Notes: a model not told the origin generated them from the sequence alone. A stretch of 64,000 bases of DNA from Promethearchaeota archaeon (GCA_030599585.1 JAUVNS010000016.1:28607-92606), one strand, 5' to 3'. Positions 2,895-48,816 are shown, counted from the stretch's first letter. Program-made: numbers and translations.

Positions 2895-2910
2895 TTTATA
2901 AAGAAAAAAA
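2895..2910 (-). promoter_or_regulatory. Non-canonical promoter TTTTC-TTTATAAA
   Basis: Reverse-strand TATA box preceded by TTTTTTC, about 50 nt upstream of ATG 2844; same motif recurs before many genes. Confidence 0.6.
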
Positions 2911-2922
2911 GAAGAAAAAAAA

Positions 2923-3011
2923 TTACTTTACACCACAAAGCTTACTTTACACCACCAGGTTGCGCGTAACTCGCTGAACTTACTTTACACCACCAGGTTG
3001 CGCGTAACTCG
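2923..3011. repeat. Direct repeat: 2 x 33 nt (CTTACTTTACACCACCAGGTTGCGCGTAACTCG) plus a 14-nt partial copy
   Basis: Copies at 2941-2973 and 2979-3011; partial TTACTTTACACCAC at 2923-2936. Confidence 0.9.
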
Positions 3012-3105
3012 TTTCTCTCCGTAGCACAACGATTTTGGATATGAATCCTTCGGTTTAATCTTTGTGCGACTGCGTTTCACTAAAGTGTCGCAACCAGATA
3101 TTAAC

Positions 3106-3324
3106 TTATTTTGATAAGTCGCATTCAATAGAATAACAATTCTCTCCAAATTTGTCTTCCTTAGTAAAATAAGCTAATTCGTTATTATTGCGCTCTTTAA
3201 TTACTCTTAGGTAGAACCTATCGTTTTCAATCCAAATTTTATCAGCGTAAATTCCATCAATATCAGGCTCTTCACCTCCTTCCGGATTGAACACGTTTAG
3301 CAAAAAAATATTATTATACACCAT
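3106..3324 (-). CDS. Small hypothetical protein
   Basis: 72 aa ORF with ATG and a purine-rich upstream region. Confidence 0.5.
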   Translation of the reverse strand: MVYNNIFLLNVFNPEGGEEPDIDGIYADKIWIENDRFYLRVIKERNNNELAYFTKEDKFGENCYSIECDLSK

Positions 3325-3462
3325 ATCTCTTTTTTCCTCTTGTTGTTTTATCTGAGGTTTAAAAATTTGTTAATTTTTTTAATAGTAGAACTCTTTTGAT
3401 CATTTAAATTTTTAAGAATTAATTAGAAACACATTGCGCTAAAAGAAAAAGAAAAAGTAATT

Positions 3463-5250
3463 TTACGGATCGTCTAAAAACGACGAGTATTTACCGTTAT
3501 ATTTTGTTGTTGATACGTTAACAGACTTAGCTTTGACTTGCTCGGGTTCAAACATGTTTTTAAATTCAGGTTCGCTTCGTTTCGTGTCAATGCTATTTTT
3601 TAAAGATTTGACTTCGACTTGTTCAATTACCCCAAACGAGGCTTCCTTTCCTAAACACTCGTATCCAAACTGAGCCATCAACTCGTCCGTCAGCTCTTCC
3701 TTAAAATCGAGTAAATCGGTTTCGTTAAATTCCAAAGTTTGTTGGTAGTATGGCGTTTTTACTTGAACCACGAACTCCTTTTTAGTTTTATAGGCTCTGA
3801 AGTATAAGAACGCGAGCAAGGAAAGGTAAATCCCTAGGACAGCGAACCCAACGGTGTTAAGTAACCTCAATAAAAAATACATTTCGGCAAAATAAATTAC
3901 TAAAAGCGCTACTGCGTACCCGAAGATAGGAATTGAAGCGTATCTTACGCGAGAGTTAAGCTCGACTTGTGATTTTTGATAATCTTTAATAGAACTCTTT
4001 TTTTTCGTTCTCTTCTCGATCATTTTGTATTTCTTCTCTAAAAATTTAACCAGAGGAGGAACATCGGTGCGAACAACTGCGTGAAGGTTCGAAGTTCTTT
4101 GGTACGGAAAGACCAGCGATTTTTCCATGCTTTTAGGAGGGGCGTTGCACACTAAGATAGGTTCGATAACGACTTTATATTGCGTGGTTCCAGAGAGAAA
4201 CACCAAATTTTTATTTCCGAAGCTTTTTTCCGATCGTAATTCTAGTTGTAAATATTTTTGGAAGAACTGAAGAATAGTAGTATCGTTTGCCACGTCTTCT
4301 TGGATATTATTTCGGACTTGGAATAAATTCTGGGTAATTTGTTTTACGTCGTTAAAAGCTCGCGAATCTTTGTTGTTCCGATAATCTTTCAATTCTATCT
4401 TGGTTTCGTCAACTAATACCGTTCCGCTTCCTTCAAACCGTTTCACAGGAAACAGAAACAAAATTTTAAGGTTATTCGAAACCCCCACTAGTTTACACCC
4501 GAGATAGTCGAGGTTCTTCGTAAACTCACTTAACGATTCTAACGAGTCAGGGATTTCGTAACACCCTAAATCTTTGAACGTTTCTCTAATTTCGAAAGCT
4601 CTACTTCTAGAAAGTCCTGCGTCTACGGTAATTGGTTTTGTGGCAGTAACTTCGATTTCTTCTTCTACTCCTTTTTGTTGTTCTGGCTGATCTTGTTCCG
4701 TTAACATCGCGCGACTAGTATGTTTTATTTCTTGCGAAGCTTCTTCTTCGTATTCAACTACTTCCTCCTCTTCTTCCTCGTATTCAATTACTTGCTCAAC
4801 CTCTAGTTGACCACCGTAATCAACGATTTCAGGGAATTGAATTGCTTTTGGTTTGCTTGCGCTAAAGTCTTCTTCCGCCTGAACTTCTTCGTAAGAATTT
4901 TGTGTCTCTTCTACGATTAGTTCTTCCACTTCGTATTTTTCAACTTGGGTTGGTAATAATTCGATTTCTACTGCTTCTTGAATTTGAGGCGTATTGTTTG
5001 CAATACTTTCTTCTTGAGAACTATCCAAATAATTTTTAGCCGCAGTAATGAATTTTGTGGCGGTGGTTAAACCAATTCCGGGAGTTTCAGAAAGTCGTTC
5101 AGGAGTCATCTCGGCAATTTGTCTTACCGTTACAATTTTTGCGTTATATAATTTCTCGGCGGTAGTCGTACCAATACCCTTGATCTTGGTTAGATCGTCT
5201 CTAGAAAGCTTAACAACTACGTTTTTTTGGGTTCCGTATACATCTGTCAT
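3463..5250 (-). CDS. Helix-hairpin-helix DNA-binding protein with acidic linker and two TM helices
   Basis: N-terminal DLTKIKGIGTTTAEKL...TPGIGLTTATKF (HhH2, Rad51-N-like); E-rich linker; hydrophobic hairpin YASIPIFGYAVALLVIYFA / VGFAVLGIYLSLLAFLYF. Confidence 0.8.
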   Translation of the reverse strand: MTDVYGTQKNVVVKLSRDDLTKIKGIGTTTAEKLYNAKIVTVRQIAEMTPERLSETPGIGLTTATKFITAAKNYLDSSQEESIANNTPQIQEAVEIELLPTQVEKYEVEELIVEETQNSYEEVQAEEDFSASKPKAIQFPEIVDYGGQLEVEQVIEYEEEEEEVVEYEEEASQEIKHTSRAMLTEQDQPEQQKGVEEEIEVTATKPITVDAGLSRSRAFEIRETFKDLGCYEIPDSLESLSEFTKNLDYLGCKLVGVSNNLKILFLFPVKRFEGSGTVLVDETKIELKDYRNNKDSRAFNDVKQITQNLFQVRNNIQEDVANDTTILQFFQKYLQLELRSEKSFGNKNLVFLSGTTQYKVVIEPILVCNAPPKSMEKSLVFPYQRTSNLHAVVRTDVPPLVKFLEKKYKMIEKRTKKKSSIKDYQKSQVELNSRVRYASIPIFGYAVALLVIYFAEMYFLLRLLNTVGFAVLGIYLSLLAFLYFRAYKTKKEFVVQVKTPYYQQTLEFNETDLLDFKEELTDELMAQFGYECLGKEASFGVIEQVEVKSLKNSIDTKRSEPEFKNMFEPEQVKAKSVNVSTTKYNGKYSSFLDDP

Positions 5251-5278
5251 AGGGATCGATACGGGTAGAATATAGCTT

Positions 5279-5292
5279 TATTTAAAGGAAAA
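5279..5292 (-). promoter_or_regulatory. Non-canonical promoter TTTTCC-TTTAAATA
   Basis: 28 nt upstream of ATG 5250, a leaderless-type spacing. Confidence 0.7.
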
Positions 5293-5612
5293 GTTATTTT
5301 AAATTTTTTAATATCTCTTTTTTATTTATATAGATACGAAAAATAGTTTTAATATGGTTTTTACCAACTCGCCACCAAGAAATTCTATTCAATTTTTCAT
5401 CTTCATTGGACCCCGGAAAATTTTTTTAAATTTTTTTTTTTGCCATAATTAATCACTTTCTTTTTCTTTGCATTGTTTGGTAGGTAAGCCGGTAAAAACC
5501 TCTTTCTTTTTCTTTATTACCTCTTCCAAACATTGGAGAAAGTAAATTACTTTTTAATTTTGATATTTATTACAAAGGAAATTTTAAAAAAAGAATAAGA
5601 TTTAGAATTTAA

Positions 5613-6845: not shown

Positions 6846-6975
6846 TTGTTAATTGAATAATTGAGTTTTATGTTTATAAATACATGTTTGCTACGGTTTT
6901 TCCTTTATATTTGCTCAAACCTAATTGATGTAATGCAAAATAACAATTTAACAAGTAATAGATAAATCGCGAATC

Positions 6976-9516
6976 ATGTCTCTTACAAACTATACCGACT
7001 CAAAGAGTTCGTCAGACGAGGATGGAACGGAGGAAGAAATATTTGAATACGTTCAAGACGAGCGTATCCTTCGAGTATTATTCGAACAAAAGATATTTAA
7101 GCTCCGGCAGATTCAAAAAGAAGCCATCCAAAAAGGTCTTTTCTTTCGAAAGTCTTTCCTCGTAAGCGCACCTTCGGGAAGCGGTAAAACGCTGATAGGA
7201 GAAATTAGCGCCGTAAACAACGTGTTCCAAAAGTTCGGTAAATCGATTTATTTAGTTCCCTATAAAGCTCTCGCAACCGAAAAATACGTCCATTTTAAGA
7301 AAGCGTACGAACGATTCGGCGTTAAAACCGAGCTATCGATAGGCGATTACGATGTGGACGATTCTCGGTTGGCTAAAGCAGATATTATAGTAACTACCTA
7401 CGAAAAAATGGATTCGATTTTGCGAAACTTCAGCGAAAAAGAATGGATTATCGACATCTCGACTATTATAATCGACGAAATTCACATTTTGGGAGAATCG
7501 AGCGGTTCTCGTGGTCCACGGTTAGAGTCGTTAATCGTGAGACTGAACGAGTTCTTACACCAACCGCAGCTTATAGGACTTTCGGCAACCATAAAAAATC
7601 CCCAATTTTTTAACGAGTGGCTCTCTTCACTTGGTAATAGTTCTACACTTATAATGTCCGACGCCCGTCCCGTTCCTTTACATTATAGCGTAGATATAAC
7701 CCAGAACAAAGACTCCACGATAAAAAAAATAATCAAAACAACTTTAGCAGATAGGGGACAAATCCTAGTTTTTTTAAACAGGAGAAAATCTACTCAACAA
7801 ACCGCTCGAAACCTAAAAAATTTGGTGAAGACCCAATTATCCGAAACCGAGTTAAAAGCGTGTAAGAAGATAGAAGAAAAGCTCAATAGAATTAAAGGAA
7901 GACACGCAGAACTTAAAAAGGCGGTTAAGTGTGGGATAGCGTTCCATCACGCCGGATTGCTTCCAAAGGAACGAAAACTAGTAGAAGACGGGTATCGAAA
8001 ACACGTGATTAAAGTGATATGTTGTACAACTACTTTAAGTGCCGGTATTAACGTGCCTGCTCGAGTAGTGGTAGTCAAAGATTTCAAGCGATACGTGACC
8101 TCAGGGCACAACATTAAAAACTTTTCTGGATACTACGAACAGGGGGACGGCTTCTCCTACTTCATGCCCTTCTCGGCTAATTCCGTGTTTCAAATGCTCG
8201 GTAGAGCGGGAAGACCGGGGCTTGACTTAGAAGGGTTTGGTTATTTACTCGCAAAGAACGTAGACGAAAGGGATTGGATCGAGGATCATTACTTCCAAAA
8301 CGCCCATACTACGGATACCTACGTTCCTAAATACAACGATTTAATTTCGGGGCTCAATAAACTTAACACCTTGAAAGAACAAGTACTATTACGAATTTAC
8401 GAGGAGAAAAATATGACCTTGGACAAGTTAAAAGATTTTTTCCAGAAGACGTTTTTTTGGTTCAGCATAAAAGATAAGATGTCAAAAGAACAAATACCGA
8501 TAGATCAACTCTTAATGATTAAAGAAATAACTCCTGCAAACATACTCAAACTCCACTCACATCCAGAAAAAGTTAAGAAATTAGGTATTAGGCGTTACCA
8601 AATTAAAATTACCAAGCTCACGAAATCTAACGTGTCGGGATACATAAAAACCGATTTTGGAGTCTTTTTTACCGAGTTCGACGTTGATGTGGGAATACGA
8701 TGTTCGTGCGGGTTCGAAAACGGACTGTCAAACAATTACTCTAACGAGCAGTTTTCGTTCGAGTTCTGCGACCACATCACTGCATTTTTGCTCCACTTGA
8801 TCGAAATCCCAGATAAAAACTTTCAAAAATATGTAGAAGATATCGTTCCTAAGTCGGTTAAGAACCAATACGTGCTCAACTATCTTTTTGAAAAAGGGTT
8901 AATCGTAAAGAGGGATAACGGCACCATAAAATGCTCGCAATTCGGAAAACTCATTATAAGGCTTTACCTTTATCCCGTTTCAGGAGTTTTAATACGATAC
9001 AAGCTCGAAAACGCCGCGATTGAAACATACCAAGACGTAATTAAGGAAGCGTACGAAGTGCTTAAATCGGAAATGAGGGTTCGAGACTACAAGTTGCTCC
9101 AACCCATCTTGGAGTGGTGCGACGAAGAACCAATCGACGACATTTTAGAGAGACATAAGATAATGGCGGGCGACCTTTACACTATTAAGGACAACTTAGA
9201 GCGCATCATAACGTTTATTGGAATTATTGCGGTTCACCTAAGCGAGTCAGATCGAGACATCGCTGAGGCTATGGTTAAAGTAGCGGAGATGTCCGAGACG
9301 CTCAAAATTAGGGTGCATTACGGGATTAGCGAAGAGTTATTCGATTTGGTTTTACGACTGGACAACGTGGCAAGAGTAAGAGCGAGAATATTATATAACG
9401 CCGGTTATCACACCGCCACGAAGGTTAAAAGAGAAAATCCTTACGTATTGAATCGAAAAACGGGATTAGGGATTAATTTATGTAAGAAGATTGTAGGAAA
9501 AAAAACACTTTCTTGA
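6976..9516 (+). CDS. Ski2-like SF2 helicase (Hel308/Hjm family paralogue) with SWIM zinc-finger insertion
   Basis: APSGSGKT, DEIH, SAT, HHAGL, QMLGRAGRPG, C-terminal HhH; CSC...CDH SWIM signature. Confidence 0.9.
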   Translation: MSLTNYTDSKSSSDEDGTEEEIFEYVQDERILRVLFEQKIFKLRQIQKEAIQKGLFFRKSFLVSAPSGSGKTLIGEISAVNNVFQKFGKSIYLVPYKALATEKYVHFKKAYERFGVKTELSIGDYDVDDSRLAKADIIVTTYEKMDSILRNFSEKEWIIDISTIIIDEIHILGESSGSRGPRLESLIVRLNEFLHQPQLIGLSATIKNPQFFNEWLSSLGNSSTLIMSDARPVPLHYSVDITQNKDSTIKKIIKTTLADRGQILVFLNRRKSTQQTARNLKNLVKTQLSETELKACKKIEEKLNRIKGRHAELKKAVKCGIAFHHAGLLPKERKLVEDGYRKHVIKVICCTTTLSAGINVPARVVVVKDFKRYVTSGHNIKNFSGYYEQGDGFSYFMPFSANSVFQMLGRAGRPGLDLEGFGYLLAKNVDERDWIEDHYFQNAHTTDTYVPKYNDLISGLNKLNTLKEQVLLRIYEEKNMTLDKLKDFFQKTFFWFSIKDKMSKEQIPIDQLLMIKEITPANILKLHSHPEKVKKLGIRRYQIKITKLTKSNVSGYIKTDFGVFFTEFDVDVGIRCSCGFENGLSNNYSNEQFSFEFCDHITAFLLHLIEIPDKNFQKYVEDIVPKSVKNQYVLNYLFEKGLIVKRDNGTIKCSQFGKLIIRLYLYPVSGVLIRYKLENAAIETYQDVIKEAYEVLKSEMRVRDYKLLQPILEWCDEEPIDDILERHKIMAGDLYTIKDNLERIITFIGIIAVHLSESDRDIAEAMVKVAEMSETLKIRVHYGISEELFDLVLRLDNVARVRARILYNAGYHTATKVKRENPYVLNRKTGLGINLCKKIVGKKTLS

Positions 9517-9579
9517 TTTTTTGTTTAAATGTTTTCACACAATTCTTCTGGTAAAATCGTTTGAAAACTTATCGATACT

Positions 9580-9921
9580 ATGAAAATTAACAACCTAGAA
9601 ATTACCAGAAAAATAGTTCAGATAGTTACCGTTTTAACCGTGGTGAGCTGCGTTCCATTAGCAATATTTACTCCTTGGAGTAAGGAGCGCGTCGTAGAAG
9701 ACTACGGTCTTTACGGTTCTATTACTTGGGTTATTCATTTTAACATTTATATCGCTATAGCTTTTTTTCTTCCCGTAGTCGGGTCGCTATTTACCAACGG
9801 GAGCGTAAAGCGATATTTTAAACAACGCAGAGCCGAGATTAACCCTCAATTTTGCATCGTTTGTGGTAAACCTAACAATTCTACAGGAAAATTCTGCAAT
9901 TATTGCGGAACCAACTTGTAA
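9580..9921 (+). CDS. Two-TM protein with C-terminal zinc ribbon
   Basis: Two hydrophobic helices; FCIVCGK...FCNYCGTNL. Confidence 0.75.
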   Translation: MKINNLEITRKIVQIVTVLTVVSCVPLAIFTPWSKERVVEDYGLYGSITWVIHFNIYIAIAFFLPVVGSLFTNGSVKRYFKQRRAEINPQFCIVCGKPNNSTGKFCNYCGTNL

Positions 9922-10536: not shown

Positions 10537-10682
10537 ATTCGTGTCTCCCTAAGTTACCCTATTTTGGTATTATATCGATAATAAAAGGCTTGTTATTTAA
10601 ACTTCCCTAGCGGATATATCTGTTCGATCTATCGTTCCCAAAATTTTTCCTTTTTAACCGTTTACACGTTATTACCTTTATA

Positions 10683-14591: not shown

Positions 14592-14671
14592 TACAAGGTA
14601 CATTTGTCGTAAGAATAAAAAGGAAAAATTGTGAAATGGATAAAAAAATAAAAAAAAAAAGAAAATATGAT

Positions 14672-17644
14672 TTAATTTTTAGAATTTCGCTTATTTTTAA
14701 ATATCTTAGTCCGAATTGTTTTAGAAGAACCAAGCATTGAGGTAGTAGCGACGCCCAACAGTCCAAACGCTAAGGGAGGCGTAAAGACCGCGTCTCCTTG
14801 GTATAATTCAGTTGAATCGGGGTCTGGATCTGGATCGGGGTCTGGATCTGGATTTGGGTTGGAATTAGGATCGACGTAATCGAAAGTTGCGTTGCAGACG
14901 AATTGGGAGTCCCCCAAGTAAGGATCGTTGAGAATAAATTCAAAATAATAGTTTCCGTAATAGGTGGGCGAGTAATCGAAAGTAAACGTCGAACTTTCTA
15001 AGGAATGAGAGGAAAGCAAGTCAATTACGTCGACATAATCTCCATCGCGGTATACTTTTGCGTACATCAAGCCATCAAAGATCGGTTCGTCTCCTGAGAT
15101 AAAAGCGTGGCGTCCATAGATATTTGCTTGGATGCGAGATTCGGTCTTTACTATCGAATACGAAAAGAAAGAATCAAATTCAGTAATAAAAGAGAACGGG
15201 AGACTCGCTTTTTTTATCGCTCCGTCGTACACGCATAAATCTCCTTCAACAACAGGATAATTACCGGTATCAATAGACACGTATACCATTTTCTGGTAAG
15301 TATAGTTGCCTAATTGGTCCAGTAGTATAGTTCCTAACTGTGTCGACTCGATTTTAACCGTAGTATATTGTCCAAAATCCGAAAGTACGAGGTTTACCAA
15401 TTCGACGGAAAACAAGTTGTTGCTTCCTAAGCCAACCGCGTCGTAATAGGAAGCGCTCAATCGAACGGTGTCAGTTTTTGCTATTTCGCATAACCACATA
15501 AACACATCGTGGTCCAAATCCTTTCTTTCAACGGTAACGTAAAATTCGTTGTAAGTATCAGAAAAGATGTTTTGAACGAGTAGGTGCGTTTGTTCTACGT
15601 CGAATTGAATATCTAGGGATAACAATTCCGAAATTTTGTAGCTGTAATAGAGATTTTTTGCGTTCGAATAGTTAAGGTGGTTTACAACGAAATTACTAAT
15701 TTTATTAGAGTCCAGATTATATTGTTCAGTCGAATCTAAAATAAATATAGTGTAGTACAAATTCTCTAAGATTAATTCTACGTTGTCAGAATATTTAGCA
15801 TCAAAAAATATCTCGGTTGGAGTTTCCACCAGATTTCTCGTAATATATGTCCCGAGCGCGGTTTTATCGAACCCTAAATCGGCGAAATATTGACCTGTTA
15901 TATTCCCTAGTCCAAAAAATTGACTGATAATTTCCATTGTTTGTATGGCGTAATAAGAATTCATTAGGTACACTAGGTCGTTTTTCCATTCGGAAGAAGA
16001 GTTAATATAAATGTTGATTAAAAACCCTCCAAAGTTATCTGCGTAGTTCGGATCGAGGAATTGAGAGTCGATAACGTCTTGTAAAACAGGATGTAAATCG
16101 TAAAGTGAGGCAAAGTCGTTTAATTTAAAAATTTTTTTCAACGAGTCAAGCATTTTGAAAATATTTTGGTGGGCGCTTATAGAATTGATTTCTTCTACGA
16201 ATTCGTGGTGTCCAGCGGTGTCGTAATCGAAGGGATTCGAACGAAAACTTACCTTGTTTAGATTCATGCTGGTGCATGCGAAAAAATCGTAATTACCACC
16301 ACGATCTACCACAGTGCCTACGAGTAAGTCGTATATCGATTGAATGTTAAGTTCTCCAATTTTCCCGAAGTATTCGTAAGACTTCACTAGGTTATAGAGC
16401 AAATCTACAGAAGCGTAATCCTCTGAAAGTAAAGAATATCCGCGTTCTTGAGCAAATAAGGTTATAAACAAAGAAATCTCGTCCTTATCACCTAATGACA
16501 ATTCAAATAGATCTCCCGTATTAGAAAGCGACCTTACAATTTGGAACGTATCGATAAGCTCGTGATATTTCACCGAAGTCGAAGCTTCCCAACCACCGCG
16601 ATAGTTTCGATTGTTAAGGATAAACGACACTACATCGCTTCTCGCAAAAGAAGTAAACCCCGTAATATCCGATAGTTCTAAATTAATCGCAGTAGCAACT
16701 ATATTGGAATAATTGACCACCCACACAAAGTCGGAAAGATCAAAGTAAGCTCCTTCGGAATGATATAACGCTGTAAGGTGCGCGTGAAACTTGGTTTTAT
16801 CTATGATATCTATATAACTACTTCCGAAAATTTCTAGGGTTTTTAAGCAATAGTAGGAAGCAAATTGGTTCGGTTCTGGCTCCAATAACGAGTCAAACAT
16901 GACCTCGTTATCGTTATAAAAGCCTGAAGAAGAACTCAACGATTGCAAACTATCAATGTAGGAGGCTATATCGCTCCTTTCTTGGGAGTGTGCGTTCCAG
17001 TCAACGCCTAAAACGTCTAACGTAAGAACAGCGTAATAGGTGTTATCTGCAGTAGGGACTTTAAATCCTTCTTCTAACGAGGGATCGTAAGGTTGACCTA
17101 TAAATCCATATAAATTTGGGTGATAACTATCCCAAATAAAATCAATCATATCGGCTATATCTATCGAATTAACAGTATTTAAAAGTTCCAACGAAAGAAC
17201 TGCGTAGCAATTGACTTGTAAAAGCGTGGACAGAGGGTAATACCTACCCGGTATTTTTGAAGCGAAGTATCTATCAGAATTTTTATCCGAAAAAATATGA
17301 GTGCCGGAGTCGTAAAACGATAAAATATAATCGGTTACAGCTTGTTGGTCAATATCCCCTAACTTTCCGATAGCGTCTAGGACATAAAGAGCGTAATAAG
17401 TCGCTTGAAGAGAATCCGAGTAAATCTGGAGGTAATAGCCGTAAGTTGCGTAATCGGCGTTTTTTGCGTCAAAAACTGATTGCAATATTTCGAGGTTCGA
17501 GACGTCAGATGTTGCCAACAAGTCAAAATTTTCGTTTTGTTTTTCACCAGGATTCGCGACAGATTTTATGCTTATTGTAGAAACATAAGCTAAAACCACA
17601 ATTAACACAACGCTAACTAAAACTAGATGTTTTTTCCATTTCAT
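14672..17644 (-). CDS. Large secreted membrane-anchored protein with prenyltransferase/squalene-oxidase-like alpha-toroid repeats
   Basis: Signal peptide; repeated TYYAL/TYYAV/SYYCL/SYYAI..L motifs with GGF/GGW; (DP)n linker; C-terminal TM plus basic tail. Confidence 0.75.
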   Translation of the reverse strand: MKWKKHLVLVSVVLIVVLAYVSTISIKSVANPGEKQNENFDLLATSDVSNLEILQSVFDAKNADYATYGYYLQIYSDSLQATYYALYVLDAIGKLGDIDQQAVTDYILSFYDSGTHIFSDKNSDRYFASKIPGRYYPLSTLLQVNCYAVLSLELLNTVNSIDIADMIDFIWDSYHPNLYGFIGQPYDPSLEEGFKVPTADNTYYAVLTLDVLGVDWNAHSQERSDIASYIDSLQSLSSSSGFYNDNEVMFDSLLEPEPNQFASYYCLKTLEIFGSSYIDIIDKTKFHAHLTALYHSEGAYFDLSDFVWVVNYSNIVATAINLELSDITGFTSFARSDVVSFILNNRNYRGGWEASTSVKYHELIDTFQIVRSLSNTGDLFELSLGDKDEISLFITLFAQERGYSLLSEDYASVDLLYNLVKSYEYFGKIGELNIQSIYDLLVGTVVDRGGNYDFFACTSMNLNKVSFRSNPFDYDTAGHHEFVEEINSISAHQNIFKMLDSLKKIFKLNDFASLYDLHPVLQDVIDSQFLDPNYADNFGGFLINIYINSSSEWKNDLVYLMNSYYAIQTMEIISQFFGLGNITGQYFADLGFDKTALGTYITRNLVETPTEIFFDAKYSDNVELILENLYYTIFILDSTEQYNLDSNKISNFVVNHLNYSNAKNLYYSYKISELLSLDIQFDVEQTHLLVQNIFSDTYNEFYVTVERKDLDHDVFMWLCEIAKTDTVRLSASYYDAVGLGSNNLFSVELVNLVLSDFGQYTTVKIESTQLGTILLDQLGNYTYQKMVYVSIDTGNYPVVEGDLCVYDGAIKKASLPFSFITEFDSFFSYSIVKTESRIQANIYGRHAFISGDEPIFDGLMYAKVYRDGDYVDVIDLLSSHSLESSTFTFDYSPTYYGNYYFEFILNDPYLGDSQFVCNATFDYVDPNSNPNPDPDPDPDPDPDSTELYQGDAVFTPPLAFGLLGVATTSMLGSSKTIRTKIFKNKRNSKN
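14817..14873 (-). repeat. Coding (NP/DP)n linker repeat
   Basis: DPNSNPNPDPDPDPDPDPD encoded by GGATCT/GGGTCT hexamer repeats. Confidence 0.8.
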
Positions 17645-17832
17645 TATACTTCACGTAAAGTTTGTTACAAAAGCTTTGAAATACCCTTATACCGAGCGTT
17701 TATAAATAAAAAAGTGTAAAAAAATTTCGAAATCATAAAAGTAAAAATAGAAGGAGCACCATCAATTATATTATATTGAAACACCCTCACAATAAATTCT
17801 TTAGTAGCAAAAACCTGAAAATTGTATAAATT

Positions 17833-19203: not shown

Positions 19204-20478
19204 TCAACAAACCGATGGTGGACCGGTTGGGTTGTGATATCTCCATAGTTCGACTTTCACGCCCTCCTCATCCATATTACCTTTTTTGTTAGATAAAGAA
19301 ACGTCTTGAAAGTTCGTTGAATTATCGTTATTTTGATTTTTGGCAACTGAGGCTACTAAATATCCACTTACGTCTTTTACAACGAGGTAATATTCTTCGC
19401 TCTCGTTTAAGTTGTTAAACACTTGACTTGCGTCCCCTAAGATTATTTGAACTATGTCGTCGCACTGTTCCTCGCCTTCCGAAATCTCGCCAAGGTCTGT
19501 AAACGCAGGATCGAGCACGCCTAATTTGTTCATAACTCTTTTTAATAAATCAGCCGATTTTACGAGACTTACAAAACCCGGAACGTTAAGCCTTTGGATA
19601 ACCCTTTTCTCGACTTGCCTGTGAATCGTTGACATTTTAACGCCTAAACGCTCGCAGATTGCGCTAACGCTCACTTCTTTTTTCTGAGAGCAGAGAAGCG
19701 TAATTGAAGTCACTAAACCCACTACCACGTCGTCCTTAGTATTTTTTATAACATCGTAAAACCTGTCAAGTATTCGTTTCGATTGGTAGTAGAACGACAT
19801 CCCCAAATTGAAGTGCTCGCTGACCTCTAAAATTCTTTCTTTTATGTATTGCTTGCGATCCCGCTCTTGATATTCGGGCCAAATGCGTATAATCGAAAAT
19901 TTAAACGAGTTAAAATCGTTCTTGGAAACCTTGGACACCCCCAAAAGTTCTTTCTCGCTGATCGGTTTACCGTTCTCTTTGTAGTACGCGTAAATAACGC
20001 AAGGCACAAGCATTTCAGCGCTTCTATATTTCGTTCCTTTTTCTAAACTCGCTCGAAATTGCTTGACCTTGCGAACAATTACCTCTACATCGCCTGAGGA
20101 GAAACCTAACGCGGTTAAAATTCGTTTTGCTTCTACTTTTACCGCAATATTAAAAGTTTCTTCGGTAGGTCGGGAAGCGTCTATCTTGCTTAACCCTTCT
20201 AATTTAGCGGAACGTTGCATTCTTCTTCTTTCAGACCTAAATCCGATTTGGGTTTTTCCTAATACGGCGTACTGAACGATGTCTGCGTCGTACGGTCGGT
20301 GATATTCTAATTTTTGTATTTCTAATACTATTCCACACGCTCGACAAGTGTAACCTTCCCGGGTTTCTATCACGTCGGTAGAATTACACACGTCGCATTG
20401 ATATTGCGACTCGAGACCTGAGACAATTTTTAACGATTTTATTTTATCAGCACTATGAGGCGTTGCCATTTTTTTCAA
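19204..20478 (-). CDS. tfb: Divergent transcription initiation factor B (TFB/TFIIB) paralogue with C-terminal extension
   Basis: Zn ribbon CDVC..CRACG, two cyclin-like repeats, HTH VSVSAICERLGVKMSTIHRQV. Confidence 0.8.
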   Translation of the reverse strand: MKKMATPHSADKIKSLKIVSGLESQYQCDVCNSTDVIETREGYTCRACGIVLEIQKLEYHRPYDADIVQYAVLGKTQIGFRSERRRMQRSAKLEGLSKIDASRPTEETFNIAVKVEAKRILTALGFSSGDVEVIVRKVKQFRASLEKGTKYRSAEMLVPCVIYAYYKENGKPISEKELLGVSKVSKNDFNSFKFSIIRIWPEYQERDRKQYIKERILEVSEHFNLGMSFYYQSKRILDRFYDVIKNTKDDVVVGLVTSITLLCSQKKEVSVSAICERLGVKMSTIHRQVEKRVIQRLNVPGFVSLVKSADLLKRVMNKLGVLDPAFTDLGEISEGEEQCDDIVQIILGDASQVFNNLNESEEYYLVVKDVSGYLVASVAKNQNNDNSTNFQDVSLSNKKGNMDEEGVKVELWRYHNPTGPPSVC

Positions 20479-20559
20479 CTCAGTTTTTTTATTGTAATCT
20501 ATTTTTCTTTGATCGATATTTTCTTCCTTTTACTAAGAAAACTAAAATGGGGTGAGGCC

Positions 20560-20575
20560 TTTTTAAACCTTTCGG
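20560..20575 (-). promoter_or_regulatory. Canonical BRE-TATA promoter of the TFB paralogue (CCGAAAGG-TTTAAAAA)
   Basis: Purine-rich BRE directly 5' of a TATA box on the reverse strand. Confidence 0.65.
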
Positions 20576-20979
20576 TTGCTAAAAAAATTTCACAAAAGGT
20601 GGAGTTTATAAACATAAAATGAAATTTTTACAAAACTATAAGATACTAAACATTGTTCACTACAGATTTGTAAAAAAAAATTGTGACGTGATCGCCTCCA
20701 CGATCTGAATCCGAGAGAAGCTCGGTTGGACTGAGTCAGTCAAAATAAGGGTAAGTTTCTCAACCGAATTTTTCTTAAAATCAATATTTTTCTTGTTTGG
20801 TTATGCGATAAAAAGATACACTTTTTGATCAAAGTTCGTTTGTGAAACTTTTTTACTTTTTATTGCACTTTGATCTCTTTTTTTGAAATGATCTTTTTAA
20901 ATCCCACGGATTTTTCCAAAAAATTTTTTACAATTTTTTTTCCTCCTGAAATTTTTTTTTAGATTAATTTTTTCTTTAT

Positions 20980-21774
20980 ATGCTTCCTTTGCGTGACCTA
21001 ATTATAATCATGATAATGTTATATATTTGGTTTTTCGCCTTGTTAGCTGCCTCCAGCGCAATTCGAGCCCTCTACGGGTTAGCACATACGCCCGGATACA
21101 AGTTGTTTTTTAACTTGATAGCCTTTGTTGGAGTGTTCGTTCACGAAGTAGCGCACTATATTGTGTCGCTCATTGTAGGTGGGAATCCCGGTAAAATTCG
21201 GGTGAAATATCGAAGTGAGGATAAAACGAGAATATCCCCTCACGGATCGGTCGGCAATCCGGAATTCAAAAGGCAATCGGTCCTACAAGCGTTCAGTATA
21301 AGTTTTGCCCCTCTTTTGGTGTCCACTTTACTGTTTATGTTTTGCTTAGACGTCGTCTTTCACATCCAAACCGATCTATGGGTAAAAGTAGTTGCTGTAG
21401 TTTTTGGCGTATCGTTAGTGTTTGGCTTAAAACCTTCGGGACAAGACGCGAAAATAGTCGGCTACGCGTATCAAAACGACCCTCGTTATTCGATGTATCA
21501 GATATTTCTCCTAGTATTATCGGGAGTGATTATTTGGTTATTTGTAGATTTATATTTTATCATGCTACCGTTTGAGGTAATGTATTACGCCGAATATATA
21601 TTAATTCTAGTCGTATTTTACTTCGGACTAAAAGGTTTGTTTTGGTTAGCAGGTAGAATTATAGGTAGCGTAGCTAAAAAATTGGGAAAAGCTCAAGTAT
21701 CGAGCCCTAAATTCCTTACCCGAAGAAGAAGGTTTAAATACGTAAAAGACCCTAACGAAAGAGAGGTGCAATAA
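20980..21774 (+). CDS. M50-family (site-2-protease-like) membrane metallopeptidase; likely start 21010
   Basis: HEVAH in a TM segment, SFAPL, PSGQD; promoter motif at 20968-20982. Confidence 0.7.
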   Translation: MLPLRDLIIIMIMLYIWFFALLAASSAIRALYGLAHTPGYKLFFNLIAFVGVFVHEVAHYIVSLIVGGNPGKIRVKYRSEDKTRISPHGSVGNPEFKRQSVLQAFSISFAPLLVSTLLFMFCLDVVFHIQTDLWVKVVAVVFGVSLVFGLKPSGQDAKIVGYAYQNDPRYSMYQIFLLVLSGVIIWLFVDLYFIMLPFEVMYYAEYILILVVFYFGLKGLFWLAGRIIGSVAKKLGKAQVSSPKFLTRRRRFKYVKDPNEREVQ

Positions 21775-22832: not shown

Positions 22833-22878
22833 GAGTAAATCGCTATATAAAGCAAAAATTTCGCCTTCTTATTTTTTC

Positions 22879-22892
22879 TTTTCCTTTAAATA
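22879..22892 (+). promoter_or_regulatory. Non-canonical promoter TTTTCC-TTTAAATA
   Basis: 21-22 nt upstream of ATG 22914. Confidence 0.7.
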
Positions 22893-23689: not shown

Positions 23690-23709
23690 CAATTAAAAAC
23701 TCTCTTTTT

Positions 23710-23722
23710 TTTTCTTTAAATA
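23710..23722 (+). promoter_or_regulatory. Non-canonical promoter of radA, TTTTC-TTTAAATA
   Basis: 35 nt upstream of ATG 23758. Confidence 0.65.
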
Positions 23723-26319: not shown

Positions 26320-26396
26320 TACAAATAACGTAACTCGGATAAATTATTTAAACAAAAAAATGTAGAGCTTAAAAAAAAAAGAAGTTAAAGGTAGAA

Positions 26397-29051: not shown

Positions 29052-29112
29052 TTTTTCCTTTAAATATATAAACTTCCCTATCTTCAATTAGTATTGTAGG
29101 TGAACTAAAAAA

Positions 29113-29211: not shown

Positions 29212-29355
29212 CTATTGCTTTTAGCACGTATTAGGTCGATTAAGGTCACCGTGAGTAATATATATTTTTTCCTTGGAATATAAAATCTAAAATTTTATTT
29301 TTACATCTAATTGTATTTACTTTTCATATTTTTCTTTTAAATACTCGCAACTTCT

Positions 29356-29747: not shown

Positions 29748-30119
29748 TTAATAAAAGTGGTATCCTTGAGGCGGGGGGTTGCCTCCTATCATAAATCCTA
29801 ATATGTCGAAGGAAACTCCGGTAAGAAACGCGCCGATCCACAGCAACAAAACGCCATACAATATAGTTTTTACGCTAAACCTTTTAAAAAAGATTTTAAG
29901 AAACCCGATTACTAACACCGCCCCTCCGATAGTAAGGCATATCTCTCCTACGCTCACGAAAACAGTTTTAAAAAGCGATCCTACCATATAACGTAAGTTT
30001 GACCCGAAGAAAGGGACGACTATAGCTATGAACCCCAATATTCCTGCAAAAACTAGAAAGATACGGTTTGGCTTGCGCTGTTTGCGAAGGATGAAAATGT
30101 CGTTTTTATTTCTAGCCAT
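29748..30119 (-). CDS. Small membrane protein, pilin-like hairpin
   Basis: 3 TM segments, IGGAVLVIGFLKIFFKR..KTILYGVLLLWIGAF; motif at 30166-30179. Confidence 0.6.
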   Translation of the reverse strand: MARNKNDIFILRKQRKPNRIFLVFAGILGFIAIVVPFFGSNLRYMVGSLFKTVFVSVGEICLTIGGAVLVIGFLKIFFKRFSVKTILYGVLLLWIGAFLTGVSFDILGFMIGGNPPPQGYHFY

Positions 30120-30302
30120 CGATTGTTTGCTCGGTATGATTTTTACCTTACTTACAGGTCGAATCTTTTTAAAGAAAAAGTTTACAGTATTAGGAATAGC
30201 TAGTTTTGTGGCGATAGTGCTGACCGTAAGCGGAATAGTTTTTAGACCGTTTTTCTAATTATAAACTTCTTTTTTTTCAATTTTTTTCGAAGTTCAATTA
30301 CC

Positions 30303-31508: not shown

Positions 31509-31651
31509 TCTTTAAAACGCCAAAAAAAGTTTACTAAGTCTTTATCTAGTAATATGAGTTTTAATTATTAACTTTTAGGTCAAAAACGTTTCCTTTATTA
31601 AATATAAGTAACTACTTTTTCCTTTTTATAGAACCGAATTACCTAAACTAC

Positions 31652-33393: not shown

Positions 33394-33615
33394 TTTCTCT
33401 CGTCTCCTTTATAAAAATCAAACTGGTTAATTAATTATAGTACGCAAAAGATAAATTAGAAATTAAATTTACCCTAATTTTTTTTGATCCTCTGCTAACC
33501 TTGCTTCCTACCAATTTCTCTTTTTTATTTATAAATAACGGTAGTCTAAACTATGCATTTAGTAAATATTTTAATTTAAACATAAATTTTTTAAAAAAAA
33601 ACTGTTGAGCAAGGC

Positions 33616-34233
33616 ATGCCAGGATCAGCGGACGATTCGATCGTCCTCCAAAACCACTTAGGAGCGTATAGAAGCGCTTCTGGAAGCAACGTAAACAAAG
33701 CACAAGTGCTTAATTTTTTTTTTAGGTTCGAAAGCTTTGCAAACGACAACAACGAATACAGAGATTTAAGCCCTTTGTTCGTTGGAACCATAGTAAAGGA
33801 TACGGATTTACCCGATTCAGTCGTATTGCGCACTGCTTTAGGGTTCATTTCAGAAGCGTCTAAATTTAGCCAATTGTTAAGCTTAGGACTCGTATCGTGG
33901 GGTTCGGGCGAAAAAAGTAAATTGAGACAAGCAAGGTTCTACTTGCGGAGGGCGTATAATATAGCCCCGGTGTTCAATTATGCTCGAGCGATCGTTAACT
34001 TAGGAATACTGCACAAAATCTTGAAAAAACATTTTTATTGGCCTCGCATCACCACTCAGCTTGCTTTAACAATTTTTGTCACTGACAGGAACGACCCAAC
34101 TATAGAGAAAAATGAGTATATTTTGCAAAAAAACTTAAGAGCTTTTTGCGCGTGCTCCGCTTACGCGTTTCACATGGCTCGAAAAAAGTTAAACATCAAC
34201 AAAATGGGACGCGTGACTCCTAACCCGTTTTAA
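33616..34233 (+). CDS. Hypothetical helical protein; C-terminus resembles a TFB/cyclin repeat
   Basis: TTQLALTIFVTD...ILQKNLRAFCACSAYAFHMARKKL. Confidence 0.6.
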   Translation: MPGSADDSIVLQNHLGAYRSASGSNVNKAQVLNFFFRFESFANDNNEYRDLSPLFVGTIVKDTDLPDSVVLRTALGFISEASKFSQLLSLGLVSWGSGEKSKLRQARFYLRRAYNIAPVFNYARAIVNLGILHKILKKHFYWPRITTQLALTIFVTDRNDPTIEKNEYILQKNLRAFCACSAYAFHMARKKLNINKMGRVTPNPF

Positions 34234-34314
34234 TATTTTTTTCAATAGGATTTTTCCTTTAAATATTCGCCCCTTATTTTTTACTTATTAGTAAATTATT
34301 ATTAGGTTTTAATC

Positions 34315-35822: not shown

Positions 35823-35898
35823 AAATACCATACCCATTTTTTGTTTAAATATTCTACTTATTTCTAATCGTAAAATATTTTATAATTTTTTAAAAACC

Positions 35899-36561: not shown

Positions 36562-36641
36562 TTTGTGGAAAATTTTTTCTTTAAATACTTAAAAATTCTT
36601 ATTCGTAAAAAAATACATATTATTGGAGAAATGATGAAAAA

Positions 36642-39093: not shown

Positions 39094-39141
39094 ACGGGAG
39101 TGCATTTTTTTCTTTAAATACTCCTCGTTAATTGTCGCTTT

Positions 39142-40227: not shown

Positions 40228-40359
40228 GTAATATATTTATTTTTTCGTGGCTTCGGCCTCCAATAATCTAAAACCTCAAATCTTTTTCTTTTTTTTTTTA
40301 TAATTTTAATTTTTTTATCAAGACTTTTTCTTTAAATACTACTCATAAGTTGTTAAACC

Positions 40360-40740: not shown

Positions 40741-40759
40741 TTCAATCAGAAAACGGAAA

Positions 40760-45360: not shown

Positions 45361-45593
45361 TCGTTCCTATGTCTGAGTGTAAGAGATGTAGACAATCTTG
45401 GCGCCCTCCTAAAGATATAATCTACAAAGAAGGGTTTTGTATTCCTTGTTATTTTATCGTACACGATTTTTTAGAAGAGAAAAAACCTTCTTTAGAAAGG
45501 TGTCTCGTTCAGCAATCTTTATAACCGGGTTTATTAAAAATTTTCTTCGTTGAGACTTTTTCTTTAAATATTCCTCACATGAGTAATAAAACT

Positions 45594-46341
45594 ATGATAA
45601 CACCTGAACACAAGACGGTGAAAAATTATTCTTGATAAAAAATGTTTTATAATTAACAACAACTTAACGCTACAGTTGAACGGAGAAACTACTAATATTT
45701 ACGTGAACGGTAAATTGTTTCGTCACTGCAAATTTCTTTTACTGCAAATTCCTAACGAAAACATTAAAGATTATAAGAGCATCGATTCAATAGACGAAGC
45801 AGAAGAAGTTTATAGTCGTTCGTTAGAGCGTCCCAGAACATCTGTTTGTAAGATTTCTCCGGAAGAAGAATTCTTTGGTCATTGTTCGAATTTGCAAGCG
45901 TGGGCAGAGAACGAATACGATAGTAGAATACTTCACAGAAACTTGGCGTTCCCTTTGTTAAAAATGCTCTTCGATACAGGCGATTCCTTCGCAAAAATTA
46001 GGCTAAGAGAAGAGGTTGCCCTACGCCTTGAGAGTGGACACCCTTCGGTTGTAAGATATCTTATTTCTGAAGGTTATTTGTCGTATTTAGACGAAAATGA
46101 GATAGGGAATATTCTTCTTAGTTTAATTAGAAAACACGGCAAAAACATTAATCCTAAAACATACGACGCTATCATCCATTATTTTTTCAACAAATATCAG
46201 GCTGAATTTGGTTTTTCTTTACTTGAGCTCATTGAGAGAATGGGGAAAGAAAAAAACTACAGAAACACTAAAGGAAGCTGTAAGTGTGGGTTAACATTCA
46301 ATTTTTCTCAATATTTTGATTTATCTCGCACATATCTTTGA
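45594..46341 (+). pseudogene. Loki-type 'NIYVNG..CKFLLL' domain protein with a +1 frameshift in an A5 run near its start
   Basis: MITPEHKTVK (45594) joins KIILDKKCFIINNNLTLQLNGETTNIYVNG if one A is removed at 45621-45625; downstream ORF 45676..46341 carries EEEFFGHCSNLQAW..LHRNLAFPLL. Confidence 0.55.
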
Positions 46342-46413
46342 AAATTTTTCAATTTTTCTTTTATATATATATACATTTAGTAGATTTATTAAAGATCAAT
46401 TTGTTATTATCCT

Positions 46414-47145: not shown

Positions 47146-47289
47146 CTTAATATATCGAGCGCAAACATAGAACTACCTCCTCACTCCATGAATAACTCTA
47201 ATGTTCTTATATCAAATCCTTACAGTATTACGATGAAAGATTTGTTCTATGACAATTACGTTAATCACATTTGAATTTACCGATTTTGC

Positions 47290-48042
47290 TCAAACAAAGA
47301 CTTCGTTCTTTTTTAACACCCAAGTATCGATTGTGAACTGTTGCGTGTTGCTCGATTCTAAGTCGTAATTCGAGTGGATGGTAGACTTCGGAATCCAAAT
47401 TTGTTTTCCGCTTTCGAAAAGGATCAGAAGCGCTTTTTCGGTCTTTCTCTCGCATATCCCTCTAACCTTAACGGATTCGTTGTCGAGATTTATTTTTTCT
47501 AATTGCGAGGGGGGAACTTGACTAGTAGTTTGGTTTTTTGGTTCTGATACGCCTACCGTTTCTTCTGTCACTAATAGCTCTGATTTTTGCTCGTTTGTTT
47601 CAATGACAGCAGGTTTCTTAAAGCCACCGTTTTTGGATTTAACGGTCGAATTTGCTATTTTCTCTTCGAATACATGCTCCAATAGCGCTTTAAACACCAC
47701 AACCTCGGAGTAGTTTAACATTTTGTAGTAATCGCCACCGTTGACGTGGAATCTTTCTTTATTTTCTTTATCCCATTTGAAAAAAATAGAAGTTTTATTT
47801 TCTTCGAAGATGTGAATCGTTTTCCAACTTGGCGCTTCTTTGCGTAGTACTCTTAGGATGAGCACCATTTCTTCTAGAGAGAATTTAATGGACTTTCCTT
47901 CTCCTTTTGAGGGCTTTTCCCACGTTCCATTATCTTTCTTTTTGATAAACCTTAAAAAAAAAAATTGGTTACTCCAGGAACTACTGTCAAAAAACATCCC
48001 CCCACTCGAACCAAAAAACGCTTTGTTGTGATATTCTACCAT
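47290..48042 (-). CDS. Putative PC4/Whirly-like ssDNA-binding protein with small C-terminal beta domain
   Basis: FIKKKDNGTWEKPSKGEGKSIKFSLEE; C-terminal TEKALLI..WIPKS; motif at 48087-48100. Confidence 0.55.
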   Translation of the reverse strand: MVEYHNKAFFGSSGGMFFDSSSWSNQFFFLRFIKKKDNGTWEKPSKGEGKSIKFSLEEMVLILRVLRKEAPSWKTIHIFEENKTSIFFKWDKENKERFHVNGGDYYKMLNYSEVVVFKALLEHVFEEKIANSTVKSKNGGFKKPAVIETNEQKSELLVTEETVGVSEPKNQTTSQVPPSQLEKINLDNESVKVRGICERKTEKALLILFESGKQIWIPKSTIHSNYDLESSNTQQFTIDTWVLKKNEVFV

Positions 48043-48120
48043 AAGTCGATCAACTTGTACTAATTACTAAGTAATCAGATTTTACTTATTTAAAGAAAAA
48101 TTTATTATTCAAATTTACAA

Positions 48121-48325
48121 TTAAATCGAAGTCTTTACTGCTTGAGCTAACCGATACGACATTAAAGGAAGCACTGCATTACCAATTTGCTTAATCAGGT
48201 ATGTCTTCGAACGATATATCTAAAATGTCAATCGCGTACACGATTTCGAATCCGGCTTTGACAAACCCTATATCGAGCCCTCCACAACCGCTAAACAAAC
48301 TGCAAACTTTTATTTTTGTTCCCAT
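48121..48325 (-). pseudogene. Remnant of a C5 cytosine DNA methyltransferase (internal deletion)
   Basis: Motif I SLFSGCGGLDIGF..AGFEIVYAID, then a stop; motif X KQIGNAV.P in another frame about 100 nt later. Confidence 0.85.
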
Positions 48326-48389
48326 AACTACTTGAGATAGGAAACAAGTGAGTGCTTTTAAAAAAAAAAATACTAGAATAGTTTTAGGT

Positions 48390-48665
48390 TTAAGGACAAA
48401 TTCCCGTATCTCTATTTGTGTTGATTTGATAATCTATAACCTGTGGTTTTAGCAAATTATTTGACGAAGTTTGCAATTTTTCTATCGATACGAGAGATTC
48501 TCTGTCTATCCAGACGATATTTCCATCGTTTTCTATCCATATAAAATTCTCTTCTCTTTCAAGGAAATTATCTAACTTAGATTCGTTAATTTCGCCGTAG
48601 CAAACTTTTTTTTCCCCGTCTCGTTCGTATCTTATCCTAACCACGGTGTTATCATTTTCGTTCAT
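48390..48665 (-). CDS. Small hypothetical beta-rich protein
   Basis: 91 aa ORF; TTGTTC-TTTATATA about 22 nt upstream. Confidence 0.6.
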   Translation of the reverse strand: MNENDNTVVRIRYERDGEKKVCYGEINESKLDNFLEREENFIWIENDGNIVWIDRESLVSIEKLQTSSNNLLKPQVIDYQINTNRDTGICP

Positions 48666-48816
48666 GTCTACTCGTAAAAATATAAGTATATAAAGAACAA
48701 GAAATTTTTCTTGCTCGATCGAAAAACCTCGATGTTAATATTAACATTTTTGAAGTTTAATTATATAAATATCACAGCTTATATTACTATATTAAAGGCA
48801 AAATTAACGATTACAA

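Follow-up and report, generated by a model that had tools for sequence, protein, structure and literature searches.

A T-tract core promoter class in a recombination-gene island of a Promethearchaeota archaeon, with a divergent TFB as its candidate reader

Can an archaeon carry a second class of core promoter, set apart by the sequence at the position of the transcription factor B recognition element (BRE) and read by a TFB of its own? This question is raised by a 64,000-nucleotide stretch of DNA from a Promethearchaeota archaeon (GCA_030599585.1, JAUVNS010000016.1:28607-92606), referred to below as the window, in which a run of Ts ending in C stands directly before a TATA box (T5C-TATA) at the head of many genes. 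Archaeal and eukaryotic transcription starts with TBP and a factor of the TFB/TFIIB type, and paralogues of these factors are common. The canonical archaeal BRE is A-rich and is juxtaposed upstream of the TATA box (PMC7289017). We find that the promoter class and its restriction to a conserved set of genes are well supported. As judged from sequence, the best single explanation for how the element is recognised would be a divergent TFB encoded in the same block of genes, here called TFB-X, a reading to which we assign a probability of roughly 0.6.

In the form T5-6-C(C)-TTTAWATA, searched with the pattern TTTTYYTTTWWAWA, the element has 21 matches in the window against 2.09 expected from 100 dinucleotide shuffles (standard deviation 1.74, maximum 7). 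Unseeded expectation maximization (EM) on 96 upstream regions of four motif-rich contigs returned TTTTTTCTTTAWA in ~47% of the regions, and the same procedure gave no comparable motif on 2,886 other upstream regions of the genome. Sites were scanned with a 15-nucleotide (nt) matrix at a cut-off of at least 14.5 bits, with the reversed sequence as control. The scan found 28 matches in the window against 8 in the control, all of them between 2.9 and 48.7 kb and 27 in non-coding sequence, which makes up 12.8% of the window. For 24 of the 28, an open reading frame (ORF) starts on the same strand within 130 nt, and seven of these 24 lie in divergent intergenic regions, so that the T-run there is not the terminator of a preceding gene.

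The block that holds these sites, here called the island, is present in three syntenic copies in the assembly: on contig C12, which contains the window, in the C49 set of contigs, and on contig C20 at 242-303 kb. Over 67 island promoters the consensus reads A(-8), T5(-7 to -3), Y(-2), C(-1), TTTAWATA; positions -7 to -3 are 79-100% T, position -2 is T or C, and position -1 is C in 76%. Instead of the A-rich BRE of the archaeal core promoter, a T-tract ending in C thus abuts the TATA box, as an upstream element of 6-7 bp with 0-1 nt of play. These observations are best explained by a second class of archaeal core promoter, with a T-tract plus C at the BRE position.

The spacing to start codons indirectly supports a normal placement of the TATA part. 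Measured from the first T of the TATA box to the ATG, the same 67 promoters fall into two classes, a leaderless one at 29-37 nt and one at 49-77 nt, and in six cases the distance is exactly 29 nt. Correcting over-extended ORF calls moves more sites into the short class (from 14621 to the ATG at 14591, 30 nt; from 29336 to the ATG at 29368, 32 nt). Among ordinary genes elsewhere in the genome, TATA-like words peak at 28-30 nt from the ATG (22, 34 and 24 occurrences against a baseline of 12-16). The 29-nt class coincides with this peak, and therefore the TATA box of the T5C class would appear to be placed as in ordinary leaderless promoters, at the usual distance from the start.

The element is confined to a small part of the 4.85-Mb assembly (GC content 0.326). 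Of the 44 genomic occurrences of the exact words TTTTC(C)TTTAAATA, 10 lie in the window. In the island copies, 67 of 182 genes (37%) have a sense matrix match upstream, compared with 25 of 2,800 genes (0.9%; 11 in the reversed control) elsewhere. As a way to define the ordinary promoter, EM on the 2,886 other upstream regions returned only coding-like noise, and anchoring on any TTTWWAWA was uninformative; a usable contrast came from the leaderless promoters at 28-30 nt together with the upstream regions of 17 tRNA genes. In the 80 ordinary promoters of leaderless class, A and T are mixed before the TATA box, with A only slightly preferred and T5C absent, and the tRNA upstream regions look A-rich before TTTAT. 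Window genes outside the set place a purine-rich element before a TATA box of the same type (GGGAAG-TTTAAATA for the longin gene, CCGAAAGG-TTTAAAAA for TFB-X), and the window scan gave no matrix match before nurA-herA-mre11-rad50, the restriction-modification gene or the activase gene.

The promoters are also conserved. We compared 40 kb around TFB-X in eight relatives from five genera and found the same gene order, with the motif before orthologues; TFB-X lies within a syntenic, motif-bearing island in all eight. Across 11 orthologue groups (genera g1, g2, g11, g12 and g13), the TATA box is kept together with the T-tract and its final C, which is sometimes replaced by A, T or G, while the flanks differ, even where the orthologous proteins are only 27-35% identical, and the FEN1-like gene keeps its 29-nt spacing among the relatives. 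Such retention amid differing flanks is what a functional cis-element passed on vertically should show. Two of the genes concerned are the RadA gene of the island, whose product is 77-86% identical between genera, with the other RadA-like genes of the genome at most 41% identical to it, and the Hel308-like gene, for which the genome contains no further close homologue. The special promoter thus appears to stand before the main recombination genes of the cell.

What could read such an element? The candidate and its own promoter are encoded in the window as follows.

19204..20469, minus strand: TFB-X gene, encoding a divergent protein of the TFB/TFIIB family, 421 amino acids (aa) from MATPHS, with a zinc (Zn) ribbon, two cyclin folds, an altered helix-turn-helix and an extra C-terminal domain.
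20549..20576, minus strand: TFB-X promoter of canonical type, CCGAAAGG-TTTAAAAA followed by GGCCTCACCCC; the same element stands upstream of TFB-X in L081, a relative's locus.

TFB-X gave no match to PF00382 in Pfam, none in NCBIfam and no TFB in a profile search of PDB sequences; its family is recognised only by profile-profile and fold comparison. Aligned with hhalign to seven canonical TFBs of the genome, it scores 95.4% (E 1.8e-8, 259 columns), and the alignment spans the ribbon, both cyclin repeats and the final helix-turn-helix, where GVKMSTIHR of TFB-X is aligned to GVTEVTLRN. Foldseek with an AlphaFold model of the protein returned 33 matches with E up to ~0.004, all of them TFIIB, TFB or Brf, and the core of Pyrococcus woesei TFB (1D3U_B) matched with a TMt of 0.59 and a root-mean-square deviation of 5.9 over 204 columns. 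The Zn ribbon is present, with C25, C28, C42 and C45 invariant in the alignments of the TFB-X family; it aligns to the canonical ribbon in hhalign and scores 19.1 bits for Pfam Zn_Ribbon_TF, under the cut-off of 29. The two cyclin-like repeats are supported by both hhalign and Foldseek. In canonical factors the Zn ribbon recruits RNA polymerase and the cyclin folds contact TBP and DNA, while V283 and R286 of TFIIB contact the BRE.

It is in this last feature that TFB-X departs from its relatives. The helices of its helix-turn-helix lie at 271-278 and 282-297 in the model, and in place of the BRE-reading residues VTEVT[IL]RxR it carries KMSTIHRQ. All ten canonical TFBs of the genome keep (V/I)T(E/D)xTxRxR, so that a changed recognition helix is found in TFB-X alone among the TFB-family proteins of the genome. 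Within this helix S280 and T281 hardly vary in a family alignment extending to 20% identity; the family is large and distinct, comprising 404 clusters at 50% identity, with close members 59-86% identical. The ten canonical TFB genes are accompanied by three TBP genes, of which two form a tandem pair at C9:164.7-166 kb. A private TBP was considered and rejected, as all three TBP genes lie outside the islands.

TFB-X further carries ~100 extra C-terminal residues. As a separate observation, its C-terminus (19204-19215) is an invariant GPPxxC in which Cys is the last residue in 25 of 25 close homologues, and the Pro-Pro is kept in the wider family. Two genes away lies a gene for a conserved 990-aa protein with a prenyltransferase-type alpha-alpha toroid (14672-17644, minus strand). 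That the terminal Cys and the toroid protein might together point to a lipid or other modification of the factor is pure speculation.

The T5C motif was never found upstream of the TFB-X gene itself, in the copies and relatives inspected. Instead, TFB-X promoters come in two conserved types. In both, a purine or A-containing element is followed by a TATA box and, directly after the box, by a conserved stretch. This stretch is GGCCTCACCCC in the window and L081 (type one) and GCAAACTGGTGATCTT in C49 (45937), C20 (261289) and most relatives of the genus (type two). The conserved post-TATA element of type two (ACTGGTGATCTT) was not found elsewhere in the genome, and so defines no wider regulon. 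By their sequence these stretches look like operators for an upstream regulator, and a cascade in which such a regulator controls TFB-X would fit them.

If TFB-X reads the motif, the two should occur together. We surveyed 161 genomes of the class, counting the exact pattern TTTTYCTTTAWATA against its reversed control. TFB-X homologues were found in 96 of 134 genomes of the window's Lokiarchaeia family (f1), whereas the other 26 genomes gave only three matches, all of them weak (E about 1e-13). The motif count against the control was 2849:1457 in the window's family and 174:193 across the remaining six. Among genomes with a completeness of 90% or more, the motif excess per genome was 6.5, 10.5, 13 and 24 for 0, 1, 2 and at least 3 TFB-X matches, with a Spearman correlation of 0.37-0.39. 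A genome from another Lokiarchaeia family (G021, closed, 4.32 Mb; C1:1719001-1779000, L078-L080) carries a syntenic island with Hel308-like, RadA and FEN1-like genes and the GTPase pair, together with a TFB-X-like ORF of 411 aa that is 23% identical and has the helix ITASTVYSH. The T5C motif is not in excess in this genome (9 matrix matches against 14 in the control), and its upstream regions show longer T-runs and other TATA forms.

The individual promoters of the window, and two contrasting neighbours, are listed below, with the matrix score in bits and the distance to the start codon where given.

2895..2909, minus: T5C-TATA promoter of a membrane operon (2844..1244); 18.0 bits, 58 nt to the ATG.
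5279..5293, minus: promoter of an HhH membrane protein gene (5250..3463; Pfam HHH_5); 19.0 bits, 36 nt; kept in C49, C20 and G081.
5318..5332, plus: back-to-back site (5325); 16.8 bits; a 32-aa ORF starts exactly 29 nt downstream.
6897..6911, plus: promoter of a Hel308-like helicase gene (6976..9516; Pfam) in a divergent region; 17.1 bits, 72 nt; kept in C49, C20, G106, G145 and G027.
9517..9531, plus: G-variant promoter of a Zn-ribbon gene (9580..9921); 15.6 bits, 56 nt.
10594..10607, minus: for contrast, the canonical promoter of the longin gene, GGGAAG-TTTAAATA.
14614..14628, minus: promoter of a 191-aa gene, leaderless class; 15.0 bits; real ATG at 14591.
17699..17713, minus: promoter (17706) of the 990-aa prenyltransferase-toroid protein gene (17644..14672; Pfam); 14.8 bits here and 20.0 bits in C49 and C20, always at 62 nt.
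20968..20982, plus: promoter of a 254-aa membrane protein gene (ATG 21010), divergent from TFB-X; 18.0 bits; kept in relatives.
22844..22858, minus: back-to-back site (22851), antisense into a KaiC-like gene; 17.8 bits; in all three island copies (C49 and C20 too).
22878..22892, plus: promoter of a 124-aa Cys-rich protein gene, leaderless, 29 nt; 19.0 bits; kept in 7 orthologues.
23708..23722, plus: promoter of radA (23758..25051; Pfam Rad51); 20.2 bits, 43 nt; 20-bit sites before orthologues in G048, G106 and G081.
26345..26359, minus: G-variant promoter of an M50 peptidase gene (Pfam); 17.6 bits, 33 nt.
26704..26718, minus: promoter of a 95-aa gene (26684..26397); 15.9 bits, 27 nt.
28281..28295, minus: promoter of an operon of a Zn-ribbon gene and a 344-aa gene, in a divergent region; 16.1 bits, 58 nt; kept in 6 orthologues.
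29052..29066, plus: strong site with only a 32-aa basic ORF 54 nt downstream; 20.0 bits.
29329..29343, plus: promoter of a small hydrophobic protein gene (ATG 29368); 14.9 bits, 32 nt.
30166..30180, minus: promoter of a 123-aa gene (30119..29748); 17.3 bits, 54 nt; kept in 7 orthologues.
31616..31630, plus: promoter of a FEN1/XPG-like gene (Pfam XPG), leaderless, in a divergent region; 17.6 bits; 29 nt, kept in C52, C20, G145 and G081.
33521..33535, plus: promoter (33528) of a 205-aa gene (33616..34233); 14.8 bits, 88 nt.
34251..34265, plus: promoter of an RPA-like OB-fold gene (Pfam); 20.0 bits, 57 nt; conserved.
35837..35851, plus: G-variant promoter of a 220-aa membrane protein gene (ATG 35899); 17.6 bits.
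36573..36587, plus: promoter of an operon of a 177-aa gene and an Arf-like GTPase gene (Pfam Arf); 20.2 bits, 62 nt; kept in 8 orthologues.
39106..39120, plus: promoter of a TPR protein gene, leaderless, 29 nt; 20.2 bits.
40324..40338, plus: promoter of a 126-aa Zn-finger gene, leaderless, 29 nt; 19.3 bits.
45556..45570, plus: promoter before 45676..46341; 19.3 bits.
46353..46367, plus: promoter of a 136-aa gene; 14.7 bits, 54 nt.
48087..48101, minus: promoter of a 250-aa gene (48042..47290); 17.3 bits, 52 nt.
48687..48701, minus: promoter of a 91-aa gene, leaderless, 29 nt, the last site of the block; 15.3 bits.
48817..55004, plus: for contrast, the nurA-herA-mre11-rad50 operon (Pfam) beside the block, without the motif; no matrix match beyond 48.7 kb.

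The original prediction, made from the sequence of the window, had listed 26 sites, and the sequence it described is present at every one of them; two (10644 and 10977) score below 14.5 bits, and four sites that it did not list emerged from the scan (5325 and 33528 on the plus strand, 17706 and 22851 on the minus strand). The set it took to be a regulon of about 25 genes is real and larger than supposed, with about 28 promoters in the window and at least 67 over the three copies, in addition to sites left of the window. Its two spacing classes, its argument that the T-run is not simply the previous gene's terminator, and the lack of the motif before nurA, the restriction-modification gene, the activase, the longin gene and tfb (the gene of TFB-X) all agree with the measurements given above.

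Two further features of the sites deserve mention. Motifs on opposite strands form back-to-back pairs ~40-50 nt apart at 22844-22892 and 5279-5332, and the first codons after three promoters of the class are near-identical, reading MI(A/T)PE... (39106-39165, 40324-40390 and 45556-45612).

The Pfam families found in the island comprise the HhH membrane protein, the Hel308-like helicase and a second SF2 helicase, the M50 peptidase, the toroid protein, a KaiC/RadA-like ATPase, RadA in two ORFs, the FEN1/XPG-like nuclease, the RPA-like OB protein, the Arf-like GTPase and TPR proteins, and many island proteins are without any Pfam family. The contig also bears the motif to the left of the window, where it stands before two B12-radical-SAM genes, a ThiF-type gene and further genes. 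Scattered strong sites elsewhere in the genome lie before genes for an Arf-family GTPase, an mTERF-domain protein and several winged-helix regulators; the mTERF protein, of 622 aa and with four repeats (Pfam E 1.8e-32), is encoded at C35:89574-91487 and has a 19.8-bit motif 48 nt upstream. From their shared promoter we infer that the motif genes would be co-expressed, and their content makes it plausible that the programme serves DNA exchange or repair.

The copies of the island differ in their distance from the window. The C49 copy, which includes fragments C6, C52, C23 and C38, shows 83-98% protein identity to it and the C20 copy 57-96%, and the flanking nurA-herA-mre11-rad50 operon has a second copy as well (C38, 90-93% identical). 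The whole region is thus found twice at ~90% protein identity, with a third, more distant copy in C20, and the duplicate region reflects either strain co-binning or large duplications. Several copies occur in near-closed relatives too, with 2-5 TFB-X matches in G048, G154 and G061. The island sits on chromosomal contigs. A foreign or contaminant contig as the sole cause was rejected, given that the C20 copy lies within a 411-kb contig and that in relatives the island is syntenic and carried by contigs as long as 3.3 Mb. GC content is raised in the motif-rich contigs, by 2-4 points in C12 and C20. Among the eight relatives, protein identity to the window tends to be higher within genus g1 than in other genera, and no integrase family was found among the 50 window proteins scanned against Pfam.

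Could the motif be nothing special, either the default or a strong promoter of the organism or an oligo-T terminator, belonging to the gene upstream, that lies next to a TATA box by chance? In an AT-rich genome T-runs and TATA-like words are common, and the reversed control gave 36 matches at 17 bits outside the rich contigs. The prevalence of 0.9% elsewhere against 37% in the island copies nevertheless led us to reject the default promoter, which the original prediction had itself named as the finding that would undo it; the seven divergent sites speak against a terminator, and the purine-rich elements of neighbouring genes outside the regulon, the conservation before orthologues and the lack of excess in other Lokiarchaeia families leave such an account highly improbable. 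A second possibility is that the block represents a conjugative or plasmid-type mobile element that has integrated, and that the motif is this element's own promoter consensus, spread as the element multiplied. The three syntenic copies, the multiple TFB-X matches in near-closed relatives and the raised GC content would all fit an element of this kind. Against it stand the lack of an integrase family among the 50 scanned window proteins, a gene order kept across five genera, the tendency to higher identity within genus g1, the position on long contigs, and the presence in the block of the best-conserved RadA and the genome's only close Hel308 homologue, which are core rather than accessory genes. 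We consider a mobile element improbable, and it would also be compatible with a private TFB and would leave the promoter class standing.

A weightier challenge concerns the identity of the reader. The class and its regulon may be real and the T-tract be recognised by something other than TFB-X, either a separate activator, such as one of the small Zn-finger or Zn-ribbon proteins of the island, that works with a canonical TFB, or a canonical TFB and TBP sensing the shape of T-tract DNA; in that case TFB-X would do something else, perhaps act as a co-activator like TFB3 of Sulfolobus, which cannot replace TFB and acts together with it (PMC7289017). Several observations weigh against TFB-X as the reader. 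Twenty high-quality genomes of the window's family without a TFB-X match still show a motif excess (ratio 1.58), and some genomes with TFB-X have no excess of the exact pattern (G112, for example, with 7 against 9). Covariation of helix and motif across TFB-X variants was looked for and not seen, since lineages with the variant helix IEMSTVHTQ carry the same motif. The genomes surveyed are related and not independent, so that the correlation between TFB-X and the motif is overstated, and marker contamination of the assembly is 8.9%, so that some of the three island copies, for instance the C49 set, may stem from co-binned strains. The AlphaFold model is weak (predicted local distance difference test, pLDDT, 58.6 overall and 70-84 in the core), and the B-reader/B-linker region aligns without conserved residues and has a pLDDT below 50. 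Other small Zn-finger proteins encoded in the island could be the reader, and several small Cys-rich island proteins are themselves under the motif. Set against these points, the element has the size and position of a BRE and abuts the TATA box almost without play, TFB-X, in contrast to a truncated co-activator, retains the Zn ribbon along with both cyclin folds, and it is the sole TFB-family protein with a changed recognition helix. On balance we judge another reader to be unlikely, if a serious contender. The original prediction of a distinct class read by a different TFB or factor thus stands in its first part and has gained a candidate protein for its second, where the assignment to TFB-X is still an inference.

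With TFB-X as the reader, a simple mechanism would follow. TFB-X keeps the Zn ribbon and both cyclin folds, and its rewired recognition helix would read the T-tract. Because TFB-X stands under a canonical purine-BRE promoter with a post-TATA element, an upstream signal would switch it on from there, and TFB-X together with TBP would then switch on the whole gene set, in the manner of an alternative sigma factor. One may extend this to a sigma-like developmental switch, in which a TFB paralogue uses its rewired helix to read an inverted (pyrimidine) BRE and turns on, as a unit, the principal homologous-recombination enzymes, a membrane DNA-handling apparatus and small-GTPase modules; we regard this wider picture as tentative, possible and yet doubtful. 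If true, recombination in the lineage closest to eukaryotes would come under this switch. The motif at this locus is sharp and high in information, there is one candidate reader for it, and annotators can use the motif to spot programme members among many unknown genes.

How does this arrangement compare with known systems? To our knowledge, no archaeal TFB or TBP paralogue with its own, clearly different promoter sequence has been documented, and we found no description of the motif, the TFB-X family or the island in the literature. The T5C-TATA promoter resembles the canonical BRE-TATA promoter (PDB 1D3U; PMC7289017) in its TTTAWATA box, its abutting 6-7 bp upstream element and its 29-nt distance to leaderless ATGs, and the presumed reader shares the TFB architecture of the canonical TBP/TFB system, as the structural match to 1D3U_B indicates. 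It differs in having a T-tract ending in C where the canonical element is A-rich, and TFB-X differs from a canonical TFB in its helix (KMSTIHRQ against TEVTLRNR), its additional C-terminal residues and its silence for PF00382. In Sulfolobales, TFB3 and TFB2 are likewise TFB paralogues dedicated to a gene programme, which for TFB3 is a DNA-damage and DNA-exchange set (ups/ced) that recalls the recombination and envelope genes found here. Promoters that respond to TFB2, the factor of the division wave and the best-studied case, and those that respond to TFB1 have near-identical TATA boxes and similar BREs and differ in spacing alone (bioRxiv 10.64898/2026.09.06.749720), whereas here the sequence at the BRE position is of a different class and TFB-X keeps the full domain set. 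The TBP/TFB combinations of haloarchaea (cited in PMC7289017) offer a parallel in many TFB paralogues per genome and in the idea of some promoter specificity, but the ten canonical paralogues here share one helix, and TFB-X, the one exception, goes with a motif that is sharply distinct and high in information.

Outside the archaea, the vertebrate TFIIB-family paralogue Brf2 also gives sequence specificity beside a TATA box, at U6-type promoters (PMC4671959), and unlike TFB-X it belongs to the vertebrate Pol III system; Brf2 chains are among the structural matches to TFB-X. The logic is closest to that of bacterial alternative sigma regulons, in which one factor paralogue has a private consensus and one gene set, and the factor gene is itself under a housekeeping-type promoter. 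The promoter here is of the archaeal/eukaryotic type, with TBP and a TFB-like factor, and sigma factors have no detectable sequence similarity to TFB. One structural comparison has nonetheless been used to argue that sigma factors, TFB and TFIIB are distant homologues (PMC4581349), so that their unrelatedness cannot be assumed. Relative to all of these systems, the novelty here would lie in pairing a full-length TFB paralogue, whose helix is rewired, with a sequence at the BRE position that forms a class of its own.

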